Positions 8,760-40,000 of a stretch of DNA of 64,000 nt are shown here, one piece after another. Source of the stretch: a virus (taxonomy: Duplodnaviria > Heunggongvirae > Uroviricota > Caudoviricetes); the IMG/VR virus record IMGVR_UViG_3300032213_000610, positions 1-64,000 of that record, one strand, 5' to 3'. The notes under the pieces are model-generated. The model had not been told where the DNA came from. It saw only the letters and a list, made by a program, of their open reading frames with translations, and ran no database searches. Position numbers and translations under genes: made by a program. Position 1 is the first letter of the stretch. Every line of letters starts with the position of its first letter.

Positions 8760-8762
8760 AGG

Positions 8763-8948: not shown

Positions 8949-8959
8949 AGGTTATTTGT

Positions 8960-15846: not shown

Positions 15847-17876
15847 TGAGTAGTGTACACATACAGAGTATAGATTACAAAGACTGGTTTATCAATCAGA
15901 AGCGTCTGCCAGACAGAGCATCTGATGAATATAAACCGTTTTATGATTTTCATAAAGACCTATGTTTAAATGGCTGTATGATGGGGGGTGTATATATCAA
16001 CCCCTTTTTATATTGGCACCTAAACATCTGGCATACAGAGGTGGATGTTATTGATGAGTATGGAAGGATTGCACAGAAATATGCTAATCCTTTATTACGT
16101 GATAACGAGTGGCTGGTAACAAACGAAATTGACAGAGCCCAAAAAGAAAGAAAGGGTTTAGTTATTCTAGGTATTAGACGTTTTGCTAAGTCCGTTATTG
16201 AGGCATCTTATATTGCATGGGGTGCAACATTTGATGAAAACTCACAAAACATTATTGCTGGTTTGAATGCTCCAGATATTAAGCTTATCACAGATAAGAT
16301 TGATAAGGGGCTTAACTTCATTCCAGAATATTGGAGATGGCAGAGAATTGAGGATAACTGGAAAAACCAAGTGACCCTTGGTATCAAGACTAAGTCTGGA
16401 GAACGTATCCCCTTTTCTTCCATCTTAATTCGTAACCTTGATGAAGGTAATAATGAGGAAGCTATTGCAGGTACAAAACCACGTAAATTAATTATAGATG
16501 AGATTGGTAAAGGGAATTTTCTTAGAGGTTTACAGGCAGCTATTCCTGGCTTCACTACACCCTATGGCTGGGGATGTTCTCCTATTCTTACTGGGACGGG
16601 TGGTGATATGAAGAAATTTATGGATGCAAAGAGCTTAATGTTCGATGTAGACAACTTCAATTTCCTTACATATAATAATGAGAAAGACACAGCTCGCATA
16701 CATGGACTCTTTATATCTAATAAATATAGAATGGAGGCCAAAGATAAAAGCTCTCTTGGAGCTTTCCTAAATGAACCTTACACATCTGATTTACATAAGA
16801 TTGAGATGCTTGTAAGTGACCAAGAGAAAGCTGACCAAATCACTGTGCAAAACTTAGAAAGACTTAAGAAAGCTGGTGATAGAGTTGCCTATCTAAAAGA
16901 AAAGATGTACTACCCACAGGAAGTGGATGACATATTCCTCAATGAAGATACAAACATCTTTGATATTGAGGCTGCTAAAAGACAGAAGAGTAAGCTATTA
17001 CAACAAGAAAGAACAGGTACACCTATTATATTATTCAATGATGGAGAGAAGATAAGTCACGAGTTTACAGATACACTTCCTATATCTAACTTCCCCCTTA
17101 AGAATAGTGATCAAAAGAATGCTCCTGTTGTTATATATGAATTCCCTATTGATAATCCTCCTTATGGATTATATGTAGCAGGAGTCGATCCTTATAGACA
17201 AGGACAATCTGCATATTCAAGCTCATTAGGATCTGTGTATGTTTATAAAAGAATGCATGACCTAACAGGTGAGAAATATCAAGATATGTTCGTAGCTTCG
17301 TATTGTGCTAGACCTGAAAAGAAGGAAACTTGGGAAGAACAAGCTAGACTTCTTATCAAGTATTACAATGCTAGAACGCTTTGTGAGAATGATGATATAT
17401 CATTTATAGAATATATGAAAGCTAAAGGAGATGCTCACTATTTAGAAAAGCAACCTCAATGGCTTATGGAGATTGTTCCAAATACAACAGTGAGACGTGA
17501 ATATGGAATACATCGTTCAAGTCAGAAGATAATTGATTATCTTCACAACTGTTTAAAGAAGTATTTGGAAGGAACGATATACAAAGAGACAAATGAAGCT
17601 GGTGAAGTTGTAAGAGAAGTGTTGGGTGTGAGTAAGATATTTGATCCTGTATTGCTTGAAGAAGTTATTCAGTACAATGACCAGGGAAACTTTGACCGTA
17701 TCATTGCTGCAGAACTAGCTATCGCTCAAGCACTTAAGATGGATCCTATATTTGGAAAGATTGGTGGATCTAGTGATGATAGAGTGAAAGCAATGCATTC
17801 AGGATCACCAAAGAACCCTTTATTTTCTACATCAAGAGGAATATTTAATAAAAGAAAACGTAAACTTTTTACATAA
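15846..17876 (+). CDS. terL: terminase large subunit
   Basis: 676 aa. ATPase Walker A-like LVILGIRRFAKS. Later D/E-rich nuclease-type segments. Immediately precedes and is coupled to the portal gene (TAATG overlap). Confidence 0.7.
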   Translation: MSSVHIQSIDYKDWFINQKRLPDRASDEYKPFYDFHKDLCLNGCMMGGVYINPFLYWHLNIWHTEVDVIDEYGRIAQKYANPLLRDNEWLVTNEIDRAQKERKGLVILGIRRFAKSVIEASYIAWGATFDENSQNIIAGLNAPDIKLITDKIDKGLNFIPEYWRWQRIEDNWKNQVTLGIKTKSGERIPFSSILIRNLDEGNNEEAIAGTKPRKLIIDEIGKGNFLRGLQAAIPGFTTPYGWGCSPILTGTGGDMKKFMDAKSLMFDVDNFNFLTYNNEKDTARIHGLFISNKYRMEAKDKSSLGAFLNEPYTSDLHKIEMLVSDQEKADQITVQNLERLKKAGDRVAYLKEKMYYPQEVDDIFLNEDTNIFDIEAAKRQKSKLLQQERTGTPIILFNDGEKISHEFTDTLPISNFPLKNSDQKNAPVVIYEFPIDNPPYGLYVAGVDPYRQGQSAYSSSLGSVYVYKRMHDLTGEKYQDMFVASYCARPEKKETWEEQARLLIKYYNARTLCENDDISFIEYMKAKGDAHYLEKQPQWLMEIVPNTTVRREYGIHRSSQKIIDYLHNCLKKYLEGTIYKETNEAGEVVREVLGVSKIFDPVLLEEVIQYNDQGNFDRIIAAELAIAQALKMDPIFGKIGGSSDDRVKAMHSGSPKNPLFSTSRGIFNKRKRKLFT

Positions 17877-20461
17877 TGGCAATTATACGGTATACAAAAG
17901 ATGCTACGATTAGGTATGCATATTTAAATATATTTCCAGATCAGTTCAAAACTGAGAAGGAGAAGCAAGATGAGAGTTGGATTAAAAACACAATGGATTA
18001 TTTTGCCAACAAATCATACGCTGAGTATGTGAAGAACAGAGACACCTTTGTCAAGAACTATGATCTTGTCAAGGGTATTTTGCGTATGGAGGACTTCTAT
18101 CAAGAGCCTGTTGTAAGTAGCTTTACACAAACATTAGAAGCTAACTTAAATCTTCCTTCGTATGTGAAGATGTATTCTATCATTACCACTCCTCTTAATG
18201 AGTTGGTTGGAGAGATTTCTAAAAGACCAGATGCTTTCCGTGTGAAGGCATTTGATGATGATAGCCAAGCTGAAGAACTAGAATTCAAAACTGGTATTCT
18301 ACAGGAATACATTATTAATCAAGCTAAACAAAAGATATTACAGAAAGCTGATTTACAAGGAGCTGAATTAGAAGAAGAAGAGCTTGAGCAAATGACAATG
18401 GAACAAGTGAAAGATGAGCTTGATAGCTATACATCTATCGCTGAGAAGTGGGCTAACCATATTCTTACATGTCAGAAGGCAGAGTTTAATCTTAAGGAGA
18501 AATCAGAAGATGCCTTCAGAGATATGTTGATTTCAGCTAGAGAGTTCTATCATATATATGAGGACAACTCAAAGCTTGGATTTAACATTGAGGTGGCTAA
18601 CCCTAAGAACACTTGGTTCCTAACTACACCAGATAGAAAGTATGTTTCAGATCCTACAGGTAGAGCACAAGGAGCATACGCTGCTGGTATTGTACAGGTG
18701 ATGGAACTATCTGAGATAATTGAGGCTATCCCTGATTTAACTAAAGATGAAATAGATCACTTACGTAGTTCTTTACAAGACTATGGTTTGATCAATGTAC
18801 GTGAATCAAATCTTGGTAATCCAAATGCGACACCTGGTATTGATTCAGTACAATATGATACATATGATCCATTAGTTCTACAAACTAGAATGATCATTGA
18901 ATCAGAGATGAAAGAGAACGATGATGGACTTAAAGACTTCTTGGGTCTTACATCTAATGTAAGCTCATTTGGTTATAAGTATGTGGTGGTTAGAGCTTAT
19001 TGGATCTCTAAGAAGAAGATTGGTAAGTTAATCTATACAGATGAAATGGGCAATGAGCAATCTATGCTTGTTGATGAAAACTATAAGAGTAAGACAATCC
19101 CTACAGAGATTTCTCTAGAATGGGGTTGGATTAACCAATGGTATCAGGGTATTAAGATTGGTCCAGACATATACCACATTAAACCATACAAATTATTAAG
19201 CTATTGCCCTATCATTGGATTAGTTCATGAGGTTAAGAATACAGAAGCTAAAAGCTTAGTAGACTTAATGAAACCATTCCAAGTGTTATATAATGTATGT
19301 ATGAACCAGCTTTACACACTTCTTGAGAAGGAAGTTGGTAAGGTGTATCTAACATCCATCAGACATATTCCTGTTCCTAAGGACGGTGATGCTCAAGATG
19401 CTTTAGATATTTGGGAACTAGAAGCTCGTAACAGAGGGGTTGTATTTATTGATGACTCTCCTGAAAACTTAAAGAGCCCTTCTAGCTTCAACCAGTTTAG
19501 AGATATTGACCTTACACGTACGCAGGAGATTCAATCTCGTTACACATTAGCTATGCAACTTAAGCAAGAGTGTTGGGAACTTGTAGGTATGTCTAAACAA
19601 AGAATGGGATCTATATCAGCTAGTGAGAGTGCTACAGGTACAAACACAGCTATTACACAGTCTTATTCTCAAACAGAACCTTTATTCGTAGCTCATGAGT
19701 ATGTTCTTGGTCAATTGTACCAAGCTATCATTGATGCTGCTTTATATGTAGAATCTAGTAAACCACAATCCACCCTATCATACATTACATCTGATGGAGA
19801 GTCTGCTTTCGTACAGGTGAATGGAACTGATCTCAGATTCCGTGACCTTAAGGTGTTCTTAACCAATCGTCCTGAAGATCAGAAAATGTTTAACGAATTG
19901 CGTGGATTGTCTCAAGCTGTTATACAAAATGGTGGTTCATTACATGACATCATTGAACTTTACAGCACTGATTCTGTACGTAAGATGAAGAAGGTGTTCA
20001 AGAGTCTTAAGGATAAGCAAGATGCTATGCAACAACAACAGTTGGATATGCAACAGCAACAACAAGAGCAACAACAAGAACAAGTTATGGCTCAATTACA
20101 ACAGGCTCAAGAAATTCAAGATAAGCAATTGGCTAATGATAACTACCAAGCTGAGCTTGATAGAATCAATAAGAAAGAGATTGCTCTTATTGCTGCTGAA
20201 TCAAAGTCAGGTCCTCTATCTGATATGGATACATCAGGAGTTCCAGATGTATTGGAAATCAGCAAGTTAGCGTTTGAGCAATCAAAAGCTGCTAAGGATT
20301 ACCAAGCAAAGATTAACGATATTCAATCTAAAAATACATTAGCTGCCCAGAAACTAAAAATTGAAAAGGAGAAAAATCAAATAGCTAGAGAGAATATGGC
20401 AAATGATTTAGCTGTTGCTAAAGTGAATGCTAAGAACAGAGCAAGTAAGAAAACTAAGTAA
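17876..20461 (+). CDS. portal protein with C-terminal Q-rich coiled-coil extension
   Basis: 861 aa, directly downstream of terL. C-terminus …QQQQLDMQQQQQEQQQEQVMAQLQQAQ… Assigned by position and size only. Confidence 0.5.
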   Translation: MAIIRYTKDATIRYAYLNIFPDQFKTEKEKQDESWIKNTMDYFANKSYAEYVKNRDTFVKNYDLVKGILRMEDFYQEPVVSSFTQTLEANLNLPSYVKMYSIITTPLNELVGEISKRPDAFRVKAFDDDSQAEELEFKTGILQEYIINQAKQKILQKADLQGAELEEEELEQMTMEQVKDELDSYTSIAEKWANHILTCQKAEFNLKEKSEDAFRDMLISAREFYHIYEDNSKLGFNIEVANPKNTWFLTTPDRKYVSDPTGRAQGAYAAGIVQVMELSEIIEAIPDLTKDEIDHLRSSLQDYGLINVRESNLGNPNATPGIDSVQYDTYDPLVLQTRMIIESEMKENDDGLKDFLGLTSNVSSFGYKYVVVRAYWISKKKIGKLIYTDEMGNEQSMLVDENYKSKTIPTEISLEWGWINQWYQGIKIGPDIYHIKPYKLLSYCPIIGLVHEVKNTEAKSLVDLMKPFQVLYNVCMNQLYTLLEKEVGKVYLTSIRHIPVPKDGDAQDALDIWELEARNRGVVFIDDSPENLKSPSSFNQFRDIDLTRTQEIQSRYTLAMQLKQECWELVGMSKQRMGSISASESATGTNTAITQSYSQTEPLFVAHEYVLGQLYQAIIDAALYVESSKPQSTLSYITSDGESAFVQVNGTDLRFRDLKVFLTNRPEDQKMFNELRGLSQAVIQNGGSLHDIIELYSTDSVRKMKKVFKSLKDKQDAMQQQQLDMQQQQQEQQQEQVMAQLQQAQEIQDKQLANDNYQAELDRINKKEIALIAAESKSGPLSDMDTSGVPDVLEISKLAFEQSKAAKDYQAKINDIQSKNTLAAQKLKIEKEKNQIARENMANDLAVAKVNAKNRASKKTK
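20020..20100 (+). repeat. CAA/CAG repeat encoding a poly-Gln coiled-coil in the portal C-terminus
   Basis: caacaacaacagttggatatgcaacagcaacaacaagagcaacaacaagaacaa. Confidence 0.7.
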
Positions 20462-22415: not shown

Positions 22416-23969
22416 ATGGCAATTCAAACAATTCCAGGTTTAACTGGCTTTACGTATGCTCGCGTTGCGTCTATGGACAAGCGTGCAGTGGGTAAGTTGA
22501 CAGATTCTAACCACTTGGAAAGCTTTCACTCAACTGAGCCAGCAGATTATGATAAGAAAATTATCAGTTTGTATACTCAGAGTTCTCTTTACAGTAATGA
22601 CTTCTTGGATATGATTAACAAGAGCACTCCTTACTATATCGATAATAACAGTGATGCTTGGAAGTGGCAAGTACAAGTTCCTTACAAGTTTCCAAAAATC
22701 ATTGACATCCCTGATACCACTCTAGCTTTAGATAAGCCAGGTATCGATGGTCAAGAGTTTTCTCTTGTAATTGACACAAATGAGTTCTCTAAGAACGCTA
22801 TTGTTTCTGTAGGTACTCGTCAGTATGGTCCTCGTTTCTACGTTATCAAAGATCCTCAACCTTGGAACGCTGGTTTCTTGTACACATTCACTCTTGTGAC
22901 TGACAACCCTCAAGTAGATTACGTAAGTGCTACTTTCTTACAAACTGGTATCGAACTAGAATTAGTTGATGCTGCTATCGGTGAATTCGATCAAGACTTA
23001 TTAGGTCTTCCTCGTTTAGGTGAGCAAATCACTATGTTTGAATCTTTAGGTTCTGCATATGGTTATGAGCACAAAATCACTGAGTGGGCTGATGACAAAA
23101 TGATGCGTGATGCTTCTGGTAAGCCTCTTGACATCTTAGTATATGCTCCACAAAGACGTAACCAATTACCTTTAACTCGTAACGATGTTAAGTGGGAACC
23201 ATTTATTGAGTTCTGGATGCGTAAGTCTATGTTAGAATTAAAAGTTAAGCGTATGATCTGGGCTAAGCCTGGTACCGTGAAGACTAATGGTTCTAAGCAA
23301 GAATTAAAGCGTACATCTGCTGGTGTATACCACAGAATGCGTAACAACGGTAACTTAGTACAATACAACCGTGGTGAGTTCACTGCAAACTTGATTCGTT
23401 CAGTGTTTGGTGACTTATTCTACAGACGTGTTGATGTTAAGGATCGTAGAGTTAAAATGTACACTAACGAAGCTGGTTTCGATGTGTTCCAACAAGCTCT
23501 TAAAAATGATGCACTTAATTCTGGTTTAACTTTCATGGCTGATTCTGGTAATCGCTACATGCAAGGAGAAGGTCAACACATCACTTACAACTTTGCATTC
23601 GATGCAATGGTTACACGTGAAACAGGTCGTGTTGAACTAATTCACTTAAAAGAATTAGACCTTCCTCAAACTAACTTAGAATTCGGTCAGAACAAAAAAT
23701 CTACTCCTGTATTCATGGTGTTTGATGTATCTCCAATGAGCGATGGTTCAATGGTAAACAACATCCGTGAAGTACGTATGAAGGGTGCTCCTTCAATGAC
23801 TTGGGGTTATATCGATGGAACTCGTCACCACTTAGGTTTTGCTAAGTCTCAAGGTATGAGTTCTGCGAACAAATTCCCTGGTTATGAGATTTGGATGAAA
23901 GACCGTTGTGATGTATTCATTGAAGATTTATCACGTACAGTATTAATCGAAGAAATACCACAATTCTAA
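22416..23969 (+). CDS. major capsid protein (putative)
   Basis: 517 aa directly after the scaffold-like gene. Marked bias for highly-expressed codons (cgt, ggt, tct, gct, aac, ttc). Followed by a GC-rich hairpin. Confidence 0.55.
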   Translation: MAIQTIPGLTGFTYARVASMDKRAVGKLTDSNHLESFHSTEPADYDKKIISLYTQSSLYSNDFLDMINKSTPYYIDNNSDAWKWQVQVPYKFPKIIDIPDTTLALDKPGIDGQEFSLVIDTNEFSKNAIVSVGTRQYGPRFYVIKDPQPWNAGFLYTFTLVTDNPQVDYVSATFLQTGIELELVDAAIGEFDQDLLGLPRLGEQITMFESLGSAYGYEHKITEWADDKMMRDASGKPLDILVYAPQRRNQLPLTRNDVKWEPFIEFWMRKSMLELKVKRMIWAKPGTVKTNGSKQELKRTSAGVYHRMRNNGNLVQYNRGEFTANLIRSVFGDLFYRRVDVKDRRVKMYTNEAGFDVFQQALKNDALNSGLTFMADSGNRYMQGEGQHITYNFAFDAMVTRETGRVELIHLKELDLPQTNLEFGQNKKSTPVFMVFDVSPMSDGSMVNNIREVRMKGAPSMTWGYIDGTRHHLGFAKSQGMSSANKFPGYEIWMKDRCDVFIEDLSRTVLIEEIPQF

Positions 23970-25853: not shown

Positions 25854-27020
25854 ATGGCTGATTTTTCATTAACTACCCTCTTCGTGGTACCAGTAGGAAA
25901 CACTCTACCTAGTCCTGGTACTTCTACGCAAAACTTGACCGCAGGTCAGTTTGGCATCTTTAGAAGCGATTACTCTGTAGCTACTGCAGGTAACATTGCT
26001 GCTAAACCGTATTTCTATTTGGCTCAAGGTAGAGTTAACACTTATTTACAAGGATCTAAGCGTTCAGACAAAATTTCTGGATGTCCTACAGGTTCTTCTT
26101 GCAAATCTAACGTTACAGAATGGTACAAGGTGACTGGTAATCCAGTTGCTGCTAACCAAGTAACTCAGATTGGTAACTTTAACGTTAAAGCTGGTGAAGT
26201 TGTAACATTCACATTACGTGCTCATTCTTCTTACATTGACACATTGTATTTCAACGGTTTTACCCGTTCTATTACAGTTGTTGCTCCTTGTTTAGAGTGT
26301 GGTGGCGATCCTTGTGCAGATGTTGATGTTCCTGCTTTTATTGATCAAGCTATCTTAAAGTTTGAACAAGCTGCTCCAGGTAACAACCCTGACAACATTA
26401 GCTTCAACACTTTCTATCAATTCCAAAGAGTTGGTAACGATCAGAACGCTAAGTTAGTTATCTCTGGTAAACCATTAACTAAATATGGTCAACCATGTGA
26501 TGTTGCTGCTTTCCCTTGGGAATACGATCGTATGTACTTCCGTACTTTCGTGTACAGTGGACCAGCTACAACTGCTGACTTCATCGTTGCTGACAATTGT
26601 AACATCGTTGCTGAGGCTGTAGTTACTCAACGTGCTTCTTATGTATCTGGTACTTCAGATGAGATCAAGCAATTAGAGAAAAACTTCTATAGCTACCAAG
26701 CTGGTTACCTTAAGCATTTGTACAGAATGGTTGGTTACAACGAGAACTTTGAGTCTTGGGTAACTGATGGTACTACTTATGACACTTATTACATTAAGTT
26801 TAATGAGTATAACAGATCTGAGTATCAGTGGGGTGATTACATCTATGAAGATAGTACAGTTATTCTTGCTATCCCTAGTGGTGCAACTGCTGCAATCGAG
26901 GCAATCTTAGTTGCTGGTTTAGGTCCTGTTACTGATGATAGCGGTCCTATCACAAGTACAACTTCTACTACAACTACTGTTTGGCCTAGTACTTCAACAA
27001 CAACTACTTTGATTCCTTAA
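25854..27020 (+). CDS. structural protein with C-terminal poly-Thr tail (388 aa)
   Basis: Ends …GPITSTTSTTTTVWPSTSTTTTLIP. Followed by a rho-independent terminator. Confidence 0.5.
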   Translation: MADFSLTTLFVVPVGNTLPSPGTSTQNLTAGQFGIFRSDYSVATAGNIAAKPYFYLAQGRVNTYLQGSKRSDKISGCPTGSSCKSNVTEWYKVTGNPVAANQVTQIGNFNVKAGEVVTFTLRAHSSYIDTLYFNGFTRSITVVAPCLECGGDPCADVDVPAFIDQAILKFEQAAPGNNPDNISFNTFYQFQRVGNDQNAKLVISGKPLTKYGQPCDVAAFPWEYDRMYFRTFVYSGPATTADFIVADNCNIVAEAVVTQRASYVSGTSDEIKQLEKNFYSYQAGYLKHLYRMVGYNENFESWVTDGTTYDTYYIKFNEYNRSEYQWGDYIYEDSTVILAIPSGATAAIEAILVAGLGPVTDDSGPITSTTSTTTTVWPSTSTTTTLIP

Positions 27021-29190: not shown

Positions 29191-30039
29191 ATGGCTTGCG
29201 TACCTGGTACCCCTTGCTTTGAAAATACAGTGAATGCTTATTATCCACAGCAATGTGATAATGGGTGGTTTGCTGGTTATCCTATTCCTACATCATCTAT
29301 TCAATACAATGGTCCTAATCTTCCTAATTCAGGAGTTGATACAGGAGATGGTATGAACGTAGCTATGCAGAAATTAGATAATGCACTTGATCCTATAGAG
29401 CTAGTACAAACCCTTATCACTGTAATCAATCAGAACCCATCTTTAAAGGTGATGTTCTGTACATTGGTAAACTCTTGTATTTATAGCACCACTACAACAA
29501 CTACTACAGTAACACCAACAACAACTAGTACAACATCTAGTTCTACCTCAACAACAACTAGTACATCTACATCTACTACTTCCACTTCTACTAGTACATC
29601 TACTACTAGTACAAGTACTACAACTACCACAACTACTGCTACACCAACTACCACTACTACTACAACATCTGCAATAGCTTATCCTGTAAGTTTCCGTCCT
29701 AGAAGTGCTTCTTCAACTTCTCAACAATTTAAAATTTGGTTTAGTACTAATTTTGGAGGAACATGGACATTGTGGACTACATCAACTTTACCTCTAGCTG
29801 TATATCCTTCTTGGGATGCTTATGGAGGGTTATCATTCAATGGTGGTCAAACTATATATTTTGGATTAACTGATTTGTCTGATAATGATATTGAATTTGG
29901 TATAGGTGTAGGCAACTTAGATAATGATTTTACAAGTTTGTGCGGTCGTTCTAATCCTTACATTATAAATAATATTAATAGTAGTATAATTACTTACTTG
30001 AATGTAAATGTAAATGCAGCAGCACTTGTAACGTGTTAA
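29191..30039 (+). CDS. tail-associated protein with about 80-aa Thr/Ser mucin-like linker
   Basis: …STTTTTTTVTPTTTSTTSSSTSTTTSTSTSTTSTSTSTSTTSTSTTTTTTTATPTTTTTTTS…. Confidence 0.5.
   Translation: MACVPGTPCFENTVNAYYPQQCDNGWFAGYPIPTSSIQYNGPNLPNSGVDTGDGMNVAMQKLDNALDPIELVQTLITVINQNPSLKVMFCTLVNSCIYSTTTTTTTVTPTTTSTTSSSTSTTTSTSTSTTSTSTSTSTTSTSTTTTTTTATPTTTTTTTSAIAYPVSFRPRSASSTSQQFKIWFSTNFGGTWTLWTTSTLPLAVYPSWDAYGGLSFNGGQTIYFGLTDLSDNDIEFGIGVGNLDNDFTSLCGRSNPYIINNINSSIITYLNVNVNAAALVTC
29493..29670 (+). repeat. low-complexity ACN/TCN codon repeat encoding a Thr/Ser linker
   Basis: Runs of act/aca/acc/tct/agt codons. Similar shorter tracts at 26950-27010, 30287-30345, 38521-38550, 38690-38760 and 39085-39115. 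Confidence 0.7.
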
Positions 30040-30063: not shown

Positions 30064-30546
30064 ATGACAGTATTAATTACATTAACAACAGCTGGTTCTT
30101 CAACAGGACCATTTAGTCTATATTCAAATGTAGACTCATACTCTGTTCCTTTTGAAACAGGTGTATCAAGATCTAGTCTATTGGCTGGATACACATCTAC
30201 ATTAGTTCCTAACGGTACAACAATCGTTCGTGTTATGTCTACAGGAATATGTACAAACTATACAGATATATCTATAGTACCATGTACTACAACCACTACA
30301 ACTAGTACTAGTTCATCTACAACTACAACTACCACCACTATAAGTCCGTTATCTGTGTGGTATCAAATAACAAATTGTGAAGATAGTTCTGTAGAATATT
30401 CTGAAGAGTATCCGTTTGGAACTTTTTCAATCAATGATAGAGTAACCTCTCCAGGAAATGTATGGGTAGTTACAGGATCTGTAACAGTTAATCCAGGCGG
30501 TATACTATATGCAATATTTTCAACAGGATTTACTAACTGTCCTTAA
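30064..30546 (+). CDS. small tail/fibre-associated protein with poly-Thr linker (160 aa)
   Basis: CTTTTTTSTSSSTTTTTTTIS linker. Shares the AACTTATAAT(ATG) start context with the gene at 29191. Followed by a terminator. Confidence 0.45.
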   Translation: MTVLITLTTAGSSTGPFSLYSNVDSYSVPFETGVSRSSLLAGYTSTLVPNGTTIVRVMSTGICTNYTDISIVPCTTTTTTSTSSSTTTTTTTISPLSVWYQITNCEDSSVEYSEEYPFGTFSINDRVTSPGNVWVVTGSVTVNPGGILYAIFSTGFTNCP

Positions 30547-30727: not shown

Positions 30728-31978
30728 ATGTCTGAAAACCAGTCATTGCTACAACAGCTAGAAGAGATTCTACATTGGAAAAAGAGTAAACAATTCTATG
30801 CTGATAAGCTTGGAATTACAGAGTTTGAGGTGGATGAGTTATTAAAAGAATTAAGAAATCAAGAGAAGAGTGAGGAAGATGCTGAGGTTGGAAATTACAT
30901 TGCTGAGCTAGAGAATGTAATAGTTAAGTTTACAGAGGACATCAGTAAGGGTGTTGGTGAGGTGGTAGCTAACTTTAGCGAAGAAGTTAAGAGTTTAGAC
31001 GAACTAATTGAGAAGTGTCACATAGACACAGATAAATGGGAAATAACTAAATATGTACAGAACTTCTGGGGGAATGGTGGAAATCCCCATTGGCAGGTTA
31101 AAGCCTGGCTAGCAAAGAAGTCTGCAGAGCAAGTTTTTCAAGATAGCTTTGTGGACTTTTTAGCTTCATATCAGCCTGTTAGTCAGGAAGTTATGAGTCC
31201 TAAGTTTGACCCAGAGAGGCCAAATGGTATGTTAGTTATCAACAAACAAGACTCTCATTTGAACAAATGGGATGTAGATGGTAATAACAATATAGTAGAT
31301 AGACTAGCTAAGATTATGTATAAGGTGGAAGTGATTGCTGCACAAGCTCAACTTTCAAACAACCTAGAAGAAATCACATACATTATTGGCTCAGATGAGT
31401 TTAATAGTGAGTACACCAATGCAACTACAAAAGGAACCCCTCAACAGAATACACATACATATCAAACTTCATTTGAGTATATATGTGACCATGAGGTGTT
31501 AATGATTACAATGTTATTACAATATGCTAAACATGTTAATGTAGTGTATGTAGCTGGTAATCACGATGAGTTTGTAGGATGGCATATGGTTAATTGGTTA
31601 CAAACGTATTTTAGAAATACAAACAGACTTACAATTGACAGCTCTCCTAAGTATAGAAAGTATGTAAGTTATGGCAATTCAGCATTAATGTTCAATCATG
31701 GAGATGCAATTAAGCCAGCTAAACTTGCAGGACTGTTCCCAATAGAATATAGAGACCAATGGTCATTCCACCATAACTTCTATATATTCACAGGAGATAA
31801 GCACCATGAAGTGAGTCATGATTTTAACGGTATTAAATTTTACCAAATTCCAGCTTTCTCAAATGCTAAGAGCCTTTGGGATGATAAGAATGGTCACACA
31901 ATGTCTAAAGCTGAGGTGACAGCATTCTTAATCGATCAAGCTGAGGGAATGACAAATATATTCAAACAGTATTTATAA
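30728..31978 (+). CDS. metallophosphoesterase-domain protein with N-terminal coiled-coil (416 aa)
   Basis: QDSHL, IGSDEF, VVYVAGNHDEF, MFNHGD, FTGDKHHE in canonical phosphoesterase order. First gene after the terminator. Confidence 0.5.
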   Translation: MSENQSLLQQLEEILHWKKSKQFYADKLGITEFEVDELLKELRNQEKSEEDAEVGNYIAELENVIVKFTEDISKGVGEVVANFSEEVKSLDELIEKCHIDTDKWEITKYVQNFWGNGGNPHWQVKAWLAKKSAEQVFQDSFVDFLASYQPVSQEVMSPKFDPERPNGMLVINKQDSHLNKWDVDGNNNIVDRLAKIMYKVEVIAAQAQLSNNLEEITYIIGSDEFNSEYTNATTKGTPQQNTHTYQTSFEYICDHEVLMITMLLQYAKHVNVVYVAGNHDEFVGWHMVNWLQTYFRNTNRLTIDSSPKYRKYVSYGNSALMFNHGDAIKPAKLAGLFPIEYRDQWSFHHNFYIFTGDKHHEVSHDFNGIKFYQIPAFSNAKSLWDDKNGHTMSKAEVTAFLIDQAEGMTNIFKQYL

Positions 31979-32706
31979 TGGCAACTTTAAGGAAATTAGT
32001 TTCAGATGTACGTGCAATGCACAAATTGTTATCAACAGATAACCTCATCACTGATAGAGTGGTGGCATCTGAGATTAAGAACAACACACTTTTATTAGTA
32101 AAACGTGAAACAAATCTCAGAAAGCTTTGGGCTACTGATACTTTGTTTACTACCATTCCTTGTTTGGAATTGGTAGAAGTTCCTATTTCTGAATGTTGTG
32201 ATTATGTGGATCCTTGTACTGTAGCTAGAACAAAATTTAAACTTCCTCGTATATGCGAGGGTAATTATCAATACCTCATTCAAGGTGTTTATTCAATAAA
32301 CGCTATGAGTGGGCAAGGCAAAAAGTTAAAAGAGGTTACTATCAATAGATATTTAAATCTCTTAAAACTTCCAATCGTCAAGAATGAGCAATACTACTGG
32401 ATTGCTAATGGAGGATATTTATATGTAAATAATCCTTTATTACAAGCTGTTAGAATTTCTGCTTTCTTTGAAGAAGATGTTCCTAATGAGATCATGTTTG
32501 CTGAATGCTGTTGCAGTGATAATGTTAATCTAGAAGACTATTGTAAAAACCCTCTAGATAAAGAATATGGCTGCCCTGGTTATTTAGAAAAGCAAGTGCT
32601 AGAACTGACATCTCAAAAGCTGTTATCGACCTATTTCAGATTGAAAACAGATCAAACATCAGATGGGGTGGATGGTCAAGCACCAAACACAACCAATGCA
32701 AACTAA
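31978..32706 (+). CDS. hypothetical structural protein (242 aa)
   Basis: ORF coupled (ATAATG) to the upstream gene. Cys-rich centre. Confidence 0.4.
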   Translation: MATLRKLVSDVRAMHKLLSTDNLITDRVVASEIKNNTLLLVKRETNLRKLWATDTLFTTIPCLELVEVPISECCDYVDPCTVARTKFKLPRICEGNYQYLIQGVYSINAMSGQGKKLKEVTINRYLNLLKLPIVKNEQYYWIANGGYLYVNNPLLQAVRISAFFEEDVPNEIMFAECCCSDNVNLEDYCKNPLDKEYGCPGYLEKQVLELTSQKLLSTYFRLKTDQTSDGVDGQAPNTTNAN

Positions 32707-33187: not shown

Positions 33188-34111
33188 ATGTCATATTACT
33201 ACAAGTATAACTTCATCTCCCCTGAGCCTGTCTATTCGACTGTGAAAGAAGAGTTTAAAAGCTACTTCGATACAGGTGCTGTAGATGATTTGTTATTCCC
33301 TACATACCTGGATAAATGTCTTAGGAAACTAGGAAGGTCTTCTTATGTTATTAGCGAACAGCTTCTATATATTGAGGACTTTGAAGCTAGGCTTCCTGAT
33401 AACTTCTTTGCTGTAAGAGAAGCTTGGTTATGTACATCAATCCCTGGCTATCCTTATCAAACAGCTAATTCATTCTATTCTCAAGCTGCTTCTCAAACAA
33501 CAATACAGGTTAGTCCTGTTATTTCTGGAGGAGCTCCTTGTACCAATCTAGAATGTACAACAGGTTGTCCTACGTGCATGCCTGAGCTTATTCAAGCTGT
33601 ATATAAGACCAATCAACAAGTGGCTGTAGAATATCATAGACAATACTTATTGAAACCAGGTAACATCTCTGTACAAGCTCATTGTACATTAGACTGTGCA
33701 AACTTTGGTAGCTCTGCTGCAGATTCATTTGACATTAGAGATAACAAGTTTGTAACCAACTTTAGAAATGGCGTAGTTCATTTGATATTCTATTCTACAG
33801 CTTATGATGGAATAGGTAATCAATTGATTCCAGATAACTATCGTGTTAGAGAGTTTGTTGAGGCTTTCATCAAATACAAAATGATGGAAACACTTACTAA
33901 CCAAACTAACGATGAGACATACAATCAGCTAGAGAGGAAGATGATGAACTATAAACAGATGGCTGATGAAGCATTTATCATGGCTGATATTGAGGTGAAG
34001 AAGCAAGATGCTTGGGCTAAGCAAAGAAGAATCATCCAAGACTTAAACAGATTTAACAGATACGAACTACCAAATAGAAGTTACAGATATGGCTGGAGAA
34101 GAAACAACTAA
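33188..34111 (+). CDS. hypothetical structural protein (307 aa)
   Basis: ORF. Overlaps the next gene by 23 nt. Confidence 0.45.
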   Translation: MSYYYKYNFISPEPVYSTVKEEFKSYFDTGAVDDLLFPTYLDKCLRKLGRSSYVISEQLLYIEDFEARLPDNFFAVREAWLCTSIPGYPYQTANSFYSQAASQTTIQVSPVISGGAPCTNLECTTGCPTCMPELIQAVYKTNQQVAVEYHRQYLLKPGNISVQAHCTLDCANFGSSAADSFDIRDNKFVTNFRNGVVHLIFYSTAYDGIGNQLIPDNYRVREFVEAFIKYKMMETLTNQTNDETYNQLERKMMNYKQMADEAFIMADIEVKKQDAWAKQRRIIQDLNRFNRYELPNRSYRYGWRRNN

Positions 34112-37100
34112 TATTAAGCAGGAGTACAACAGTGCTATATCTGGCTTAAACATGGATCAATCTGTAAATCAGGTTGAGAAGGGTAAGCTTACGTATGCAT
34201 TGAATGCTAGTGTTGAGAACTTTGACTCAGATTCTGTAAACTATCAGAATGAGCCAGGTAATGAGTTATGTCTAGACTTTCCTACAGGGTATCATTTAAT
34301 AGGAACTCATTTCATTGTTGAACAAAATAAACATGTATTCTTTCTAACTAATCCTGAAACAGAAGATAGTCAGATTGGATATATGGATAACAATGATTGT
34401 GTATATCGTATATACGTAAGTGCTAAATGTTTAGGCTTTGATGTAAAATATCCTATCCTTAAAGCTGTTCATAAGATTACCAATTGCACTACAGAAGTGT
34501 ATTGGACAGATGGTCTTAATCCTAGAAGATACATAGACCTAAATAATATTCCATATAAGTTAGCTCCTAATGCTGATTTATGTGATCCTATTTATACCAA
34601 TGAACTTGATTGTAATCAATTAAACGTTCAACCTAATTTTAACATTCCTTCATTAGAAGTAACTGATGTTACAACTGGTGGTGACTTAACTTCTGGCACA
34701 TATCAGTTTGCTATTCAGTATTGTGATGCAAGTGGTAATGCTTATTCATCTTTCTACTCTGTTACCAACCCTACACCTATTGCTAATACCAATGTCACTA
34801 CACCAGAGTTCTCTTATCAAGTTGGTAAGTCTATTGTAGTTAGTGTTGGTAATCTAGATACCACTGGATATTTCCAGTATTTTAATCTTGCTGTAATTAA
34901 GACAATAAATGCAATAGCTTCTGTTGAGCTTGTTGGTACATATTTTATTGAAGATGACACTAGAACCATAACTTATACAGGACAGAACGTTACACAGATT
35001 CGTCTTGCTATTGCTGATATATTTGAGAAATATCCATATTACGAGATAGCTCAAGACTTAACCACTGCCCAAGATGTTCTTATCTGGGATAACCTAACCG
35101 TTATTGATAGAATTAACTATCAATCAATTGCTAGTCAAATTGATCTTAAATGGGAAACTTATAGAATCCCTAGTACAGAAACCTATGCTGATGAACTAAA
35201 CGCTACAAATTTTAGAGGTTATCTAAGAGATGAAGTGTATGCATTTGAGATAGTGTTCTTGCTTAAGAACGGTAAGCAAACAGATGGTTTCCATATTCCT
35301 GGTAGAATGATTAGTGCTAATGAAGGTTCTCAACCAGATGTACCAAGCAGTAATCCTGACTTTATTGGAGAGGGTGCAAGTGCACCATATTGGAAGATTT
35401 ACAACACAGGTTCTGTAACAGGGTTTTCTCCTGGATATTCACCAAGTCAATCTTATAAAGGACCTTACCAATATGGTGAGTTTGCTTATTGGGAATCAAC
35501 AGACACCTATCCATGTAACATAGATTTATGGGGTGATCTTGCTAGTCAACCTATCAGACACCATAAGTTTCCTGATGTTCTTGTAAGTCCTATATACGAA
35601 AGTCCTACATACACATTGGGAGGAGCATTTGCACCAGTGATGCAAAATGATGCTGTATTCCCAATGGGTGTACAGATTGATGTTCAACAAGTTGCATACT
35701 TAGTGTATGCATCTAATCTTACACAGGCACAGAAAGAAAGCGTTGCAGGATTTAAGATTGTAAGAGGGGACAGAAGTACAAATAGATCTATTGTAGGTAA
35801 AGGTATTCTTAGAAACGTAGGTAAGTATAAGAGAGAAGAAACAGAATTCTACTTCCCTAACTATCCATATAACGATCTTAATAAGGATGAATTCCTTCTT
35901 GATAATAATAATGGTTATTGTGATGAATGTATCACGTACAAACTTGCTACCACAGGATCTACTATTGTAGAATATACAGACTGTTTTTCAAATACACTAG
36001 TAACTGAAACACTTGTTTCATCTCCAACTAATATATTTTCTCTAAGTACACCTATCATTACTTCTGGTACAGCAGTAGTTACTATAGTTCCTTATGATAC
36101 TTATAGACTAACTAGTAATAGCACTACAACATTTGAATCTAAAGATCCACTAACAGGTAACACTGTTGTCACTATAGTTAATGTTGGAGCTGTTCAATTT
36201 GTTAATTCTACAACTGTTCCAACAATCATTGGTGGTACATCAGATGCTACTATCACTAAACTATCAACTAGAAGATCATTAAAATATCCTAATAAACTAG
36301 ATGCATTTGCTACAGATGAATCTAAATACAGAATGGTATTTAACTCACCTGAAACATCTTTCGGACAACCTTTCTTAGGAACTGTCATGAAACTTGAGAA
36401 CGTTATGTTTGGTGGTGGTATAGCTCATTTTGTAGAGGTTAAGAGGAATGCTATGTATAAGCTTCTCACAGCAGAGGCTCAACGTGATGCTCTTAAATCT
36501 AGTGAGGACATTGGTCATATTACTGTAGACTTTAATGCATCAGCTATGTTTGCTGCATATCAAGCCTATCTGACCATCTACATAAATGGAATCACTAGAA
36601 GAAACTATGGGTATTCATTTAACTCAATAGCTAGTTATGATTACAGTGGAGCTATTGATAACAATCTAGGTATCAAGCAAAGACAATTAGACAATGCTCA
36701 ATATGTATTCCCTGGAGTGCAGTCTGTAAGTGACTTACATGATTTCAACAACTTCAATAGAGAATCATCTATATATGTAAAGACAGTTGATACTAGAGAT
36801 GGTTCATCAGTGATACCTTTACCATTCCCTAATCAAACTCCTAGTTTATTAGTTGGTGGTGTAAGTGGTATCTCTGATACATCAAGATTTACTATATCAC
36901 AAAAGAACAACTGTTCTGTACCTAATAAGAATGAAGCAATTAATGTAGTTTCTTATTATGGATCATTAAAGAACATCTTTATCAATCAGTGGGGTCAAAT
37001 ATATTCTTACGATACAATTGATACAGGTTTCCAAGAAAGCATTGACATTAACAGTTTAATGTTCTCTACACCTAACTCAGCTACTATATTTGGTGGAGAT

Positions 37101-39122
37101 ACATTTATTAGCAGATTTGCATTCAAGACTAAGCTTCCATTCTTTATTGATAATAGAGTGAATTCTCCTGATGATAGTGATGTATTCTATGATGAGATTG
37201 GTAATGTGGCTTATCCACAATACTGGCACTCAGCTAGATCTGTATTAGAAGACTATTCTTTAAATAATGGTGCTGGTCCAGTGCTAAAGAATATGATTTC
37301 TTATAAGGCACACAATTTTGATTGTCCTAACAACCAAAACCCTGCACCTAACTCAGCAACAAATCCCCCTATAGTAAATCCTAACAGAACATTCTACGAT
37401 GGTAAGATGTATATGTTTGCTTATGGTATTCCTTCTTTCTATTGTGAAAGTTCATATAATGTGGATTTACGTCAAGCATTCAATAATCTAGAAGGTGACT
37501 TCTTCCCACACGTGAGCTCAGGTATTCCTGATAACTGGTTACAAGAGTCTGTGGTTCCTATTGTATTTGATAATACATATTATTATAATGTAACATTCTC
37601 AAAGCAAAACAGAGAGAATGTATTTACTCACTTGCCTGCAGATTGGACTGAACAACTTTGTTACACTAAGTATCCGTTTAGAGCTGTTTATTCAGATCCT
37701 CAGGATGCATTTGCTGACAATAGAGTGAATAGCTGGTTAAGCTATGGTGCTACAGCATTCTTTGATTTCCCTCAAAACTTTGGTGGTCTTGTATCACTAG
37801 ATGGTATTCAGAACAAGGCTATATTGGCTAGGTTTGAGAACAAGTCATTGTTATACAATACAATGCTTACAGTTCAAACTAGTAATCCACAAGCTGCTTA
37901 TCTAGGTAATGACACATTATTTAAGAGTGCTCCCCCAATTGACTTTGCTGAAACAGACCTTGGATATGTAGGAAGTCAGAATAAGTTCTTATTAAAGATT
38001 CCTAATGGACAGATTACAGTAGATGCTAAGAGAGGACAAGTGTTTTTAATTGAAGGTTTACAAGCTACTGACTTATCTGCATTTGGTTCAGGACTTAATA
38101 AGTTCTTTACAGACCATTTAGCATTTGAACTATTACGTTACTATCCTGAGGCAAACACGGATAACCACTATAACGGTATTGGATTACATGGAGTGTTTGA
38201 TAGTAAGTATGATAGGGTGATTATATCTAAGCTTGACTATATTCCTAACAGTAAAGATATTAAATACGATGTTGCTACTAGAGAGTTTTATATAGAAAGA
38301 ACATTAGGTGAGAGTATAATAAGAACGGTGGTAAGTGTTTATGATTCAGAATACTTCTGTAACAAGTCATGGACTCTTTCATTTAGTATGAATACTAAGA
38401 GTTGGATTAGCTTCCATAGCTATATTCCTAACTTCTACATAGCAGAGAATAACTTCTTCTATTCTGGATTGAATGGTGGATGTGACCTAGAAGCTATTAC
38501 TTTCTCTGAGATTCCTTGTACCACTACCACAACCACATCAACAACAAAAGATTGTAGAATAATAGGCACAGCAATTGATCTATGTATAGACTGTACACTG
38601 ATAGGAACAGCTTGTGTAGATTGTACAATAATTGGTACGGCTTGTGTAGATTGTACAATAGTTGGAACAGCTGTAGAACAATGTCCAACTACTACCACTA
38701 CAACATCTAGTAGTACAAGTACAACAACTACCAGTACAAGTACCACTACCACTACCACCACTATATGTACTAGTAGACCTGAAGGATTATCAGATTGGCA
38801 ATACTTCTTTACATATACACCTACAGAAGGAGCTGAACCTATTAACTACACTGCAACATTAGAAAGTGCTTGCGATGCTTGTAATTGGTTAAATAATAAT
38901 ACTGCATGGGGTGAAGGAGCTTGGACTGGTCAAAGTTTTACATTTAGTGTCGGAAGTTATGTTTATCTTGGAACATATACTAATTGTGATGGATTATATG
39001 ATGGATTTTATATAACAAACCACGCAACTTGTGAAATAACACAAATAGTTGATGGGTATATTGTAGCTATTACAAATTGTACTATAACTCCAACTACCAC
39101 AACAACAACTATTGCTCCGTAA
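34089..39122 (+). CDS. giant tail fibre / host-recognition protein (1677 aa) with poly-Thr linkers and Cys-rich tandem repeat
   Basis: Long beta-rich sequence. 10-aa Cys repeat CIDCTLIGTA / CVDCTIIGTA / CVDCTIVGTA flanked by TTTTTSTT and SSSTSTTTTSTSTTTTTTT. Ends TPTTTTTTIAP. Confidence 0.55.
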   Translation: MAGEETTNIKQEYNSAISGLNMDQSVNQVEKGKLTYALNASVENFDSDSVNYQNEPGNELCLDFPTGYHLIGTHFIVEQNKHVFFLTNPETEDSQIGYMDNNDCVYRIYVSAKCLGFDVKYPILKAVHKITNCTTEVYWTDGLNPRRYIDLNNIPYKLAPNADLCDPIYTNELDCNQLNVQPNFNIPSLEVTDVTTGGDLTSGTYQFAIQYCDASGNAYSSFYSVTNPTPIANTNVTTPEFSYQVGKSIVVSVGNLDTTGYFQYFNLAVIKTINAIASVELVGTYFIEDDTRTITYTGQNVTQIRLAIADIFEKYPYYEIAQDLTTAQDVLIWDNLTVIDRINYQSIASQIDLKWETYRIPSTETYADELNATNFRGYLRDEVYAFEIVFLLKNGKQTDGFHIPGRMISANEGSQPDVPSSNPDFIGEGASAPYWKIYNTGSVTGFSPGYSPSQSYKGPYQYGEFAYWESTDTYPCNIDLWGDLASQPIRHHKFPDVLVSPIYESPTYTLGGAFAPVMQNDAVFPMGVQIDVQQVAYLVYASNLTQAQKESVAGFKIVRGDRSTNRSIVGKGILRNVGKYKREETEFYFPNYPYNDLNKDEFLLDNNNGYCDECITYKLATTGSTIVEYTDCFSNTLVTETLVSSPTNIFSLSTPIITSGTAVVTIVPYDTYRLTSNSTTTFESKDPLTGNTVVTIVNVGAVQFVNSTTVPTIIGGTSDATITKLSTRRSLKYPNKLDAFATDESKYRMVFNSPETSFGQPFLGTVMKLENVMFGGGIAHFVEVKRNAMYKLLTAEAQRDALKSSEDIGHITVDFNASAMFAAYQAYLTIYINGITRRNYGYSFNSIASYDYSGAIDNNLGIKQRQLDNAQYVFPGVQSVSDLHDFNNFNRESSIYVKTVDTRDGSSVIPLPFPNQTPSLLVGGVSGISDTSRFTISQKNNCSVPNKNEAINVVSYYGSLKNIFINQWGQIYSYDTIDTGFQESIDINSLMFSTPNSATIFGGDTFISRFAFKTKLPFFIDNRVNSPDDSDVFYDEIGNVAYPQYWHSARSVLEDYSLNNGAGPVLKNMISYKAHNFDCPNNQNPAPNSATNPPIVNPNRTFYDGKMYMFAYGIPSFYCESSYNVDLRQAFNNLEGDFFPHVSSGIPDNWLQESVVPIVFDNTYYYNVTFSKQNRENVFTHLPADWTEQLCYTKYPFRAVYSDPQDAFADNRVNSWLSYGATAFFDFPQNFGGLVSLDGIQNKAILARFENKSLLYNTMLTVQTSNPQAAYLGNDTLFKSAPPIDFAETDLGYVGSQNKFLLKIPNGQITVDAKRGQVFLIEGLQATDLSAFGSGLNKFFTDHLAFELLRYYPEANTDNHYNGIGLHGVFDSKYDRVIISKLDYIPNSKDIKYDVATREFYIERTLGESIIRTVVSVYDSEYFCNKSWTLSFSMNTKSWISFHSYIPNFYIAENNFFYSGLNGGCDLEAITFSEIPCTTTTTTSTTKDCRIIGTAIDLCIDCTLIGTACVDCTIIGTACVDCTIVGTAVEQCPTTTTTTSSSTSTTTTSTSTTTTTTTICTSRPEGLSDWQYFFTYTPTEGAEPINYTATLESACDACNWLNNNTAWGEGAWTGQSFTFSVGSYVYLGTYTNCDGLYDGFYITNHATCEITQIVDGYIVAITNCTITPTTTTTTIAP
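38545..38700 (+). repeat. tandem 30-nt coding repeat (3-4 copies) encoding CxDCTxxGTA units
   Basis: …tgtatagactgtacactgataggaacagct tgtgtagattgtacaataattggtacggct tgtgtagattgtacaatagttggaacagct…. Confidence 0.7.
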
Positions 39123-39133
39123 TTAATTAAGAT

Positions 39134-40000
39134 ATGTCTAAAGTAATAACAATAAGATTAACAAAGGCTGGCATTAGAACTGGACCGTTTAAGATTTCTG
39201 ATAACTACGGAAATGTCTTAGGAACTAATATTCCTAAGAGCCAAGTTATTTCTGGAATCACCTATTCGGTTAGTGATGATGTCACTGTTATTATTATTGA
39301 ATCTATAGGGAAATGTAAAACAAGATTACAAATGCCTATAGAGGAACTATGTATTGCAGATGTGGCAGCTATCAAGTTTGTCCCTACAGATACAGCATCT
39401 TTATGGAGACACTTAACTAACACAACAATTTACAATATATTCTACGGAAACATAGAACCTTATATTATAGAATATCCATTTGCCTATCAGTATTATGATG
39501 AGATCTTACAGAATGTAAAAGATTACACAAAGGCATATAGATACCTCCCTATACCAGATGGTGTGTTCAATGATAACGCTAAGATAGAAACAAACACAGT
39601 TTATTTCAACAAAGCTGTCCTATACAATGGACAACAGTCTTCTGGTGTACTAGAACTAGTTCCTAAACCAATTAACAACTTAAAGGAATACTTGAAGTAT
39701 CCTATGTATAACGCTGATAGTAAGACGATTATGTTTACTAAATCAGATAATTTTTATCAATATAATACATTTTGGTCATTAGTTAAAGATAAATCCTTAC
39801 CTTTGTTTGTAACAGGTTGTGACTCATTGTCTATAGATAAGGTTGTAAATCAACCAAATATGGATTATGGAAAGAGATCATTTAAGAAAGAACCTCTACG
39901 TGCGAAAGATTTAAAGGTGAGACACGTCCTAGATAATAGATCAGATGCCCATTTGATAAGTCAATTCATTATCACACCATCTCAAATCTCTTACAAATAA
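39134..40000 (+). CDS. tail-associated protein (288 aa)
   Basis: ORF coupled (TAATG) to the next gene. Confidence 0.45.
   Translation: MSKVITIRLTKAGIRTGPFKISDNYGNVLGTNIPKSQVISGITYSVSDDVTVIIIESIGKCKTRLQMPIEELCIADVAAIKFVPTDTASLWRHLTNTTIYNIFYGNIEPYIIEYPFAYQYYDEILQNVKDYTKAYRYLPIPDGVFNDNAKIETNTVYFNKAVLYNGQQSSGVLELVPKPINNLKEYLKYPMYNADSKTIMFTKSDNFYQYNTFWSLVKDKSLPLFVTGCDSLSIDKVVNQPNMDYGKRSFKKEPLRAKDLKVRHVLDNRSDAHLISQFIITPSQISYK

Follow-up and report, generated by a model that had tools for sequence, protein, structure and literature searches.

What is the short, cysteine-rich tandem repeat that lies between poly-Thr linkers near the end of a long tail gene in the phage record IMGVR_UViG_3300032213_000610? 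The analysis covered positions 1 to 64,000 of this IMG/VR record (the whole 64-kb stretch, hereafter the window), its open reading frames (ORFs) with their translations, and relatives from IMG/VR. The window belongs to a crassvirus (Crassvirales-like; GC content 35%), and ORF 34089..39122, which carries the repeat, is read here as the crassvirus muzzle protein on account of its Pfam score and of the ring, portal and capsid genes in its neighbourhood. Judged by sequence comparison, the array is a local, Cys-doubled and shortened form of a clade-wide, muzzle-specific mini-unit (period 10-13), and its conserved element is DCxLxGTA and not the Cys ladder, a point overlooked in a preliminary description of the locus, as was its position at the break of a split muzzle gene.

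The cysteine-rich array and the C-terminal extension

The peptide DCRIIGTAIDLCIDCTLIGTACVDCTIIGTACVDCTIVGTAVEQC was confirmed at amino acids (aa) 1488-1532 of the muzzle ORF, nucleotides (nt) 38550..38684, with poly-Thr/Ser tracts on both sides (aa 1478-1486 and aa 1534-1558). The preliminary description had reported a Cys-rich repeat of the form CxDCTxxGTA, in three to four copies, between Thr/Ser linkers. The repeat is real, as the peptide, a 30-nt period and the flanking tracts were all found, and its layout is corrected to four tandem Cys units, one of 13 residues and three of 10. The gene and its C-terminal parts are as follows.

34089..39122, + strand: crassvirus muzzle (tail-tip) protein gene, 1677 aa; core aa 1 to ~1476, variable C-terminal extension aa 1477-1677
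38475..38516, + strand: core end 'GGCDLEAITFSEIP', aa 1463-1476; degenerate unit-like segment (C-D-L-E-A-I)
38517..38546, + strand: linker 1, C-TTTTTT-S-TT, aa 1477-1486; AlphaFold2 predicted local distance difference test (pLDDT) <50
38550..38585, + strand: unit 1, DCRIIGTAIDLC, aa 1488-1499; Cys-bracketed C-x9-C loop
38586..38615, + strand: unit 2, IDCTLIGTAC, aa 1500-1509; C-x6-C
38616..38645, + strand: unit 3, VDCTIIGTAC, aa 1510-1519; C-x6-C; copy missing from relative L005 (30-nt in-frame indel)
38646..38684, + strand: unit 4, VDCTIVGTAVEQC, aa 1520-1532; C-x9-C
38685..38762, + strand: linker 2, P and 25 Thr/Ser, aa 1533-1558
38763..39089, + strand: C-terminal globular module with six Cys, aa 1559-1667; confidently folded in the prediction, no solved structural relative
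39090..39119, + strand: terminal linker stub PTTTTTTIAP, aa 1668-1677; TAA stop at 39120..39122

At the DNA level, Tandem Repeats Finder (TRF) reported a period of 30 with 3.0 copies at 38583..38672 (83% matches, score 124), the 30-nt consensus with at most three mismatches had two matches against 0.00 expected from 100 shuffles, and a direct-repeat search returned three copies with 77-80% identity to the first. Identity across the DNA copies is 77-90% overall; between paralogous units there are 6-9 mismatches in 30 nt in the xDC..GTAx register, and between units 3 and 4 there are 3 in the TRF register. Compared with their orthologues in relative L001 (86% aa identity), the units of the window's protein (the query) have only 1-2 changed nt in 30, indicating that the amplification is older than the split from L001 and not very recent, so that the earlier description of the DNA repeats as near-identical and recently amplified no longer stands. 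A minus-strand ORF over the repeat and linkers (38459..38761, 100 aa, GTG start) was judged to be no gene, being the stop-free reverse complement of ACN-rich coding sequence.

A peptide unit specific to muzzle tails

Muzzle relatives are encoded by 430 IMG/VR contigs, and 80 relative loci were taken from this database, with muzzle proteins 57-92% identical to the query. In all the fetched relatives the core ends at '..IAENNFFYSGLNGGCDLEAI..' and is followed by a variable extension built from poly-Thr linkers, 0-8 unit copies and diverse globular modules; the unit-like core end is kept even in relatives without any other unit. The unit comprises ~11 residues, phi-[DN]-C-x-[LI]-x-G-T-A-phi-x-phi, and was found in 74 of 81 related muzzle tails. 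A profile of 328 distinct units has, relative to C at 0, a hydrophobic residue at -2, D/N at -1 (62%), L/I at +2 (92%), G at +4, T at +5 (58%), A at +6 (73%) and hydrophobic residues at +7 and +9, and successive units are mostly spaced by 11 or 13 residues (range 10-14). Only the query's subclade has the second Cys, and with it the CxDC ladder; units there are Cys-bracketed (C-x9-C), and the query, L001 and L056 have inner units shortened to C-x6-C. Most relatives have a single Cys in each unit. Among 14 close relatives, the D, C, R, G, T, A, D and C of unit 1 are invariant, with synonymous codon variation at G, A, D and L, a pattern that points to purifying selection.

Counted with the pattern C-x-[LIFMV]-x-G-[TENSVIDQ]-[AGVI], the unit had 188 matches in the tails of 81 muzzle proteins (12.2 per 1000 aa) and three in the cores of the same proteins (0.025 per 1000 aa), a ~500-fold enrichment. 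The six-frame translation of the window gave no match outside the repeat, 1.6 M six-frame residues flanking muzzle genes gave seven, a chance-like number, and 219 other poly-Thr ORF segments (74 k aa, 80 larger loci) contained no canonical linker-flanked unit. The 120 best database matches to the query tail were all muzzle ends, most of them carrying units, and a units-only chimeric query matched muzzle tails only. When the 47-aa array was searched exhaustively with phmmer against 1.84 billion representatives, 13 matches were obtained, only two of them muzzle tails; the others were unrelated decapeptide repeats whose E-values are inflated by repetition, equally good ones being plainly eukaryotic repeats. 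Neither the unit array nor the C-terminal module had a meaningful match in Pfam, NCBIfam or PHROGs, and the same is true of the shuffled modules described below; no unit was found in the cultured relatives examined (Lbo-JY46, Cellulophaga phi17:2 and the csAssE-Sib muzzle ORF).

Two of the proteins matched by phmmer, the long P0122 (426 aa) and P0124 (1021 aa), carry 10-25 tandem decapeptides ('AVNATVIGTA', 'GTPSVNATIT') of the form x-N-A-T-[IV]-x-G-T-[AP]-x. They share period and register with V-D-C-T-I-I-G-T-A-C of the query, the common form being x-[DN]-[CA]-T-[IVL]-x-G-T-[AP]-x, but differ in having no Cys, contiguous copies and no linkers; neither received an annotation from Pfam, PHROG or PDB.

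Some units are isolated between two linkers or stand at the extreme C-terminus ahead of a poly-Pro end, and in P0008 and P0090 two units and a poly-Thr tract are inserted in a core loop. This loop lies between '..EFYVE' and 'RTVV.LTD..YFCNKSW' and gives the muzzle core a second site that tolerates insertions; it is used in P0008, P0090 and P0028, and by poly-Thr alone in locus L066.

Copy-number variation and module exchange

The number of units varies even among close relatives. At 84-92% identity, two units occur in L006, three in L003-L005 and L007-L010, and four in the query, L001, L002 and L056; these differences are in-frame whole-unit indels (exactly 30 nt between the query and L005), and across the wider clade a tail has 0-8 units. 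The modules vary as well. The exonuclease of L083 is 100% identical to that at 30728..31978 of the window, 3 kb upstream, yet its muzzle tail has three units and a different terminal module, 32 aa of which are 72% identical to a stretch of window ORF 29191..30039. A further module, that of window ORF 30064..30546, recurs in the muzzle tails of L003, L004, L008 and L010. The earlier proposal of a hypervariable region with changing copy number thus agrees with what the relatives show, copy number being anything but invariant among them, and we infer that the locus is relevant to host range.

The C-terminal modules of the two poly-Thr ORFs 29191..30039 and 30064..30546 (both + strand) recur in muzzle extensions of six loci (L003, L004, L008, L010, L060 and L083). 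From these sequence matches, modules appear to be exchanged among virion proteins across their poly-Thr linkers. In four genes the poly-Thr/Ser-coding tracts belong to a single direct-repeat DNA family (D1) with 62-77% identity, which is a plausible substrate for recombination and module swapping.

26950-27014, 29477-29676, 30281-30345 and 38683-38780: copies of the D1 direct-repeat family, including the DNA coding for linker 2

No template/variable repeat pair of a diversity-generating retroelement (DGR) was found in the window, where pairs involving the tail arise only via poly-Thr tracts and the 30-nt units; a reverse transcriptase was not specifically searched for. A DGR-type mechanism was set aside, as no template repeat matching the variable region was present among the direct repeats of the window.

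Predicted structure and cysteine pairing

AlphaFold2 was applied to aa 1400-1677 of the query (45-sequence alignment) and to P0077 (architecture-matched 31-sequence alignment). In the query, the module at aa 1559-1669 had a pLDDT of 93-98, the units had 36-55 and were drawn as one long hairpin, and the linkers were below 50; in P0077, the module had 95-97, the units had 47-60 without secondary structure, and the linkers were low. The models suggest that the modules fold autonomously, and the units show no autonomous predicted fold. No known family or recognisable fold was found for the globular modules. Structure prediction, the check proposed in the preliminary description, does not bury the units inside a canonical fold (pLDDT 36-60). 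With confidently predicted modules, low-pLDDT linkers and modules shuffled between proteins, the extension has the predicted make-up of a linker-connected modular appendage. A reading as a beta-solenoid, Cys-rich antifreeze-type repeat or pentapeptide repeat was rejected: the arrays have 1-4 units with a spacing of 10-14, units are often isolated, pLDDT is 36-60, and there is no Pfam repeat family.

The distribution of Cys residues offers a further clue. In the query's clade every segment has an even number of Cys (two in the core end, two per unit and two in the terminal unit). Outside the modules, 45 of 67 non-redundant tails have an even Cys count and 22 an odd one, compared with 33 even and 34 odd in the cores, numbers that are not phylogenetically independent; for the modules the figures are 50 even and 13 odd. 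P0077 and P0073 lack the core-end Cys and have two Cys in the module, and their two unit Cys lie 11 residues apart, so that the unit Cys would be each other's only partners; in P0053 and P0074 both unit Cys have been lost together. The L003 pattern (C-x9-C-x2-C-x9-C-C-x8-C) and the isolated terminal units (C-x9-C) are suggestive of serial closed loops rather than zinc knuckles.

Since the second Cys exists only in the query's subclade, this accounting is suggestive of disulfide-closed C-x6-10-C loops rather than a CxxC metal site. The metal-binding Cys ladder proposed earlier fits poorly, with CxxC limited to that subclade, most relatives having one Cys per unit and isolated units having a single C-x9-C. 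A zinc knuckle or zinc ribbon was likewise rejected, because paired CxxC is not conserved among the homologues and no Pfam match was obtained.

The muzzle gene, its split and its neighbourhood

The N-terminal part of the query (aa 12-338) matches Pfam PF25731 crAss_MUZ (E=2.4e-36, 125.8 bits, gathering cut-off 27), and the ORF matches phrog_37948 (E=1e-100) and phrog_15100 (E=7e-32) in PHROGs, which sharpens the 'tail protein' of the preliminary description to a crassvirus muzzle protein. The genes that place it in a crassvirus tail module, each assigned by Pfam, are as follows.

33188..34111: CrAss_Ring_1, upstream of the muzzle gene
31978..32706: CrAss_Ring_2, upstream of the muzzle gene
22416..23969: Crass_capsid
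17876..20461: P22_portal

The muzzle gene had no megablast match among 50,697 phage records, and the best protein relatives were Leptolyngbya phage Lbo-JY46 (33%) and Cellulophaga phages phi17:2 and phi4:1 (27%), with homology that stops at ~aa 1394-1470 and excludes the extension. The full protein had no phmmer match among PDB sequences, and its C-terminus can therefore not be placed by sequence in the crAss001 structure. In PhiCrAss001 the muzzle is a hexameric gate of roughly 1 MDa at the tail tip, thought as a tail-tip protein to contact the cell, and the virion is stabilised by many inter-subunit disulfides (PMC10172136).

Homology with the unsplit muzzles of Lbo-JY46 and phi17:2 stops just upstream of the core end, at the anchor '..PN(Y/F)YI..NN.F.(T/S)G', and in these two phages the polypeptide runs on for ~200 aa past the anchor. 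The corresponding sequence in the window is found in a separate downstream ORF.

39134..40000, + strand: split-off ancestral muzzle C-terminal domain, 288 aa; ~89-aa N-domain, then ~200 aa homologous to unsplit muzzle C-termini

Residues 88-288 of this ORF have 31% identity to the Lbo-JY46 muzzle C-terminus (E=7e-29), and they match phi17:2 (E=2e-9) and the end of phrog_15100 (positions 1588-1781). These alignments indicate that the muzzle gene is split in this clade and that the 288-aa ORF is the ancestral C-terminal domain; because this domain is a separate downstream ORF, the extension is appended exactly at the break point. The downstream ORF, where found in relatives, has a constant ~288 aa including the ~89-aa N-domain, with 0 or 8 units alike, and lineages without units are still split, so that the units are accessory to muzzle assembly. 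Between the muzzle stop and the split-off ORF lie 1-14 nt in most relatives; L015, L020, L035, L039 and L071 have a gap of 250-540 nt, which may hold an extra small ORF.

Several further observations concern this region. The N-domain of the split-off ORF (39134..39394, '..ITIRLTKAGIRTGPFKIS..') resembles that of ORF 30064..30546 (30064..30285) with 33% identity over 61 aa (pairwise E=8e-8), and the two represent a shared small domain. In P0007, P0012, P0042, P0083 and P0091 (90-126 kb contigs), calls of 250-356 aa have their Met just upstream of '..VDVTDP.YFCNKSW', a pattern suggesting that in other lineages the muzzle gene has another split or a recoded stop codon, or that the gene calls are artefacts. 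In csAssE-Sib (L163, OR575929.1), a gut crAss-like phage, the 2257-aa muzzle gene is directly preceded by a gene for a TnpB-family RNA-guided endonuclease and has tRNA-Tyr and tRNA-Lys downstream. Elsewhere in the window, a short-ORF region contains a 38-nt direct repeat (8735-8772 and 8924-8961, 189 nt apart, 74% identity) ending in CATAGGTTATTTGTTT, which may be a repeated regulatory element.

Interpretation of the units

We place slightly less than an even chance on the units forming disulfide-closed loops or hairpins that staple the flexible stalks of six arms with exchangeable adhesion modules. The comparisons show the anatomy of the locus, the muzzle specificity of the unit, the split gene, the variability and the units' lack of a predicted fold of their own; that disulfides form, that they staple the arm and that the modules serve in adhesion is what we infer. 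In this model, a poly-Thr-linked flexible C-terminal arm would have been added where the ancestral muzzle gene split, with units at its base and often also at its tip. As the muzzle is a hexamer, six arms should project from the tail tip, each bearing swappable globular modules that are presumed to serve adhesion. Each unit of the query's subclade would be closed by its own Cys pair (C-x9-C or C-x6-C), and elsewhere neighbouring one-Cys units would pair via the conserved L-C-L/A face, so that the loops could act as covalent staples punctuating and organising an otherwise floppy stalk. Variation would come from slippage or unequal exchange between the 30-nt units and also from recombination in the similar poly-Thr-coding tracts.

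Several points weigh against such staples. The disulfide-stapled mini-module of the preliminary description is plausible and fits the Cys accounting, but its disulfides are predicted from sequence. The parity bias is only ~2:1, uncorrected for shared ancestry, with odd counts in one third of the tails (nine Cys in L039), and metal sites or reciprocal inter-chain bonds would give the same parity. Genuine disulfide-rich mini-domains are usually placed by AlphaFold with some confidence, which is not so here. A pure staple would explain neither the absence of the unit from other poly-Thr-linked virion proteins nor the conservation of x-L-x-G-T-A inside the loop; five lineages manage without units, and the globular modules, presumed to serve adhesion, show no recognisable fold.

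Conservation of the loop interior (L-x-G-T-A), and not of Cys alone, leads to the alternative that the units themselves bind a ligand, as disulfide-constrained loops presented in many copies on six flexible arms, with avidity for a conserved component of the host surface and an affinity tuned by copy number. We regard this as possible although doubtful. It would accommodate the polymorphic copy number (0-8), the position on a tail-tip protein thought to touch the cell (PMC10172136) and the muzzle specificity, which suits a tip-specific function; however, the residues kept among units (L, C, L, G, A) are small or hydrophobic ones and resemble a packing face more than a recognition surface, the variable positions have no obvious hypervariability pattern, unit-less lineages exist, and the globular modules are more conventional binding candidates. 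A second alternative is self-association, in which inter-chain strand pairing, with or without inter-chain disulfides, would cross-link or bundle the six arms; stalks of two or three chains, a collar and a short multi-chain beta-helix are among the possible outcomes. A lone 12-residue one-Cys unit between linkers cannot bury its L-C-L/A-V-I face, the units are unfolded in the AlphaFold monomer, the odd count in one third of the tails leaves a Cys for an inter-chain bond, the muzzle is hexameric and crAss001 virions use inter-subunit disulfides (PMC10172136), and Cys-less decapeptide repeats in the same register occur in the long proteins P0122 and P0124. We nevertheless think self-association unlikely: closure within one chain is favoured by the bias towards even counts and by the presence of two Cys in each unit of the query's clade, a continuous fibre is hard to reconcile with long flexible linkers at either end, an array has only 1-4 units, and the likeness of the unannotated P0122 and P0124 is inflated by repetition. 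In a bolder reading that we rate as equally unlikely, DCxLxGTA would be a new self-pairing, disulfide-locking 'zipper' by which the six arms close on themselves or on one another into a redox-sensitive collar or cage of adhesion modules around the tail tip, whose reduction or rearrangement at the cell surface is part of the ejection trigger, or else a natural constrained-peptide receptor ligand.

The remaining explanations are less probable still. A docking role, in which the units tether the core of the muzzle to the split-off 288-aa subunit or to some other tail protein, is suggested by units that start exactly at the split point and by a core end that is itself unit-like, but the downstream protein, including its N-domain, is constant at 0 or 8 units with no co-variation found between N-domain and unit number, lineages with 0 units keep the split, and many units lie far from the core, beyond long linkers and modules; we consider docking improbable. 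Much the same holds, to a marginally greater degree, for binding of a metal (Zn, Fe or Cu) by the CxDC...C ladder. The query has three CxxC pairs 6 residues apart with Asp adjoining Cys, and even Cys counts fit metal sites too; against this, the CxxC spacing is confined to the query's subclade while most relatives have one Cys per unit, the arrangements C-x9-C-x2-C-x9-C, adjacent CC and lone C-x9-C are unlike a known zinc knuckle or ribbon, and there are no His residues and no Pfam metal-binding family in what would be an extracellular virion in oxic water. A repeat that is a functionless by-product of slippage in a low-complexity region is disfavoured and seems highly improbable. The tandem DNA repeat does adjoin low-complexity poly-Thr coding sequence, and some lineages have no units, but the amino acid motif is kept with different codons across muzzles 57-92% identical and tails down to ~30% identity, it is ~500-fold enriched in tails, and orthologous units are conserved between diverged genomes.

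Comparison with known systems

Crassviruses are abundant, yet to our knowledge a single virion structure has been solved and little has been learnt of what determines host recognition. In the large environmental clade covered here (430 IMG/VR contigs), the tail tip varies most in the poly-Thr-linked arm of a split muzzle, a concrete locus for strain-level diversification that differs between phages with identical neighbouring genes. It contains a short, undescribed peptide motif whose chemistry, be it disulfide, metal or binding, is directly testable. Units that staple or cross-link the arms would be a new structural element of the crassvirus tail, and units that bind the host would be a rare case of natural constrained-peptide display.

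The closest characterised counterpart is the PhiCrAss001 muzzle gp44 (PF25731; Bayfield et al. 2023, PMC10172136), to which the N-terminal region of the query is homologous above the Pfam threshold. In both, the muzzle gene is syntenic with those for the portal, the crass capsid protein and ring proteins 1 and 2, which points to a tail-tip gatekeeper. Length variation of gp44 is described as insertions in the crass and IG2 domains, and, unlike the query clade, no split gene, poly-Thr-linked C-terminal arm or Cys unit is described there (PMC10172136). No description of the unit was found in the literature on Thr-rich linkers in phage tails or on freshwater crAss-like muzzle proteins; the split of a crassvirus muzzle gene and the peptide unit are both undescribed, whereas the linker-connected modular appendage itself is of a known type.

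Linker-connected modular surface proteins, with Thr/Pro-rich linkers and carbohydrate-binding or Ig-like modules, and phage decoration or adhesion modules provide a comparison that draws partly on general knowledge. As in these surface proteins, low-complexity linkers join autonomous modules here; unlike theirs, the modules match no known family or fold, and a conserved 11-residue Cys unit, for which a counterpart was not found, also punctuates the arm. The Cys-rich beta-helical antifreeze protein of Tenebrio molitor, built of 12-residue TCTxSxxCxxAx coils, resembles the array in its tandem repeats of 10-12 residues with two Cys each and with Thr and Ala at fixed positions. The query differs in having only four units, no TxT face and no solenoid in the AlphaFold prediction, and its relatives mostly have one Cys per unit, a spacing of 10-14 and units that can be isolated. 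Antibody hinge regions have Cys in Pro/Thr/Ser-rich segments, and C-Xn-C disulfide-constrained peptides are used in phage display. Both offer an analogy, without homology to the query, for short Cys elements in flexible Thr/Pro-rich segments; the loop interior, variable in the phage-display peptides, is conserved in the muzzle units.

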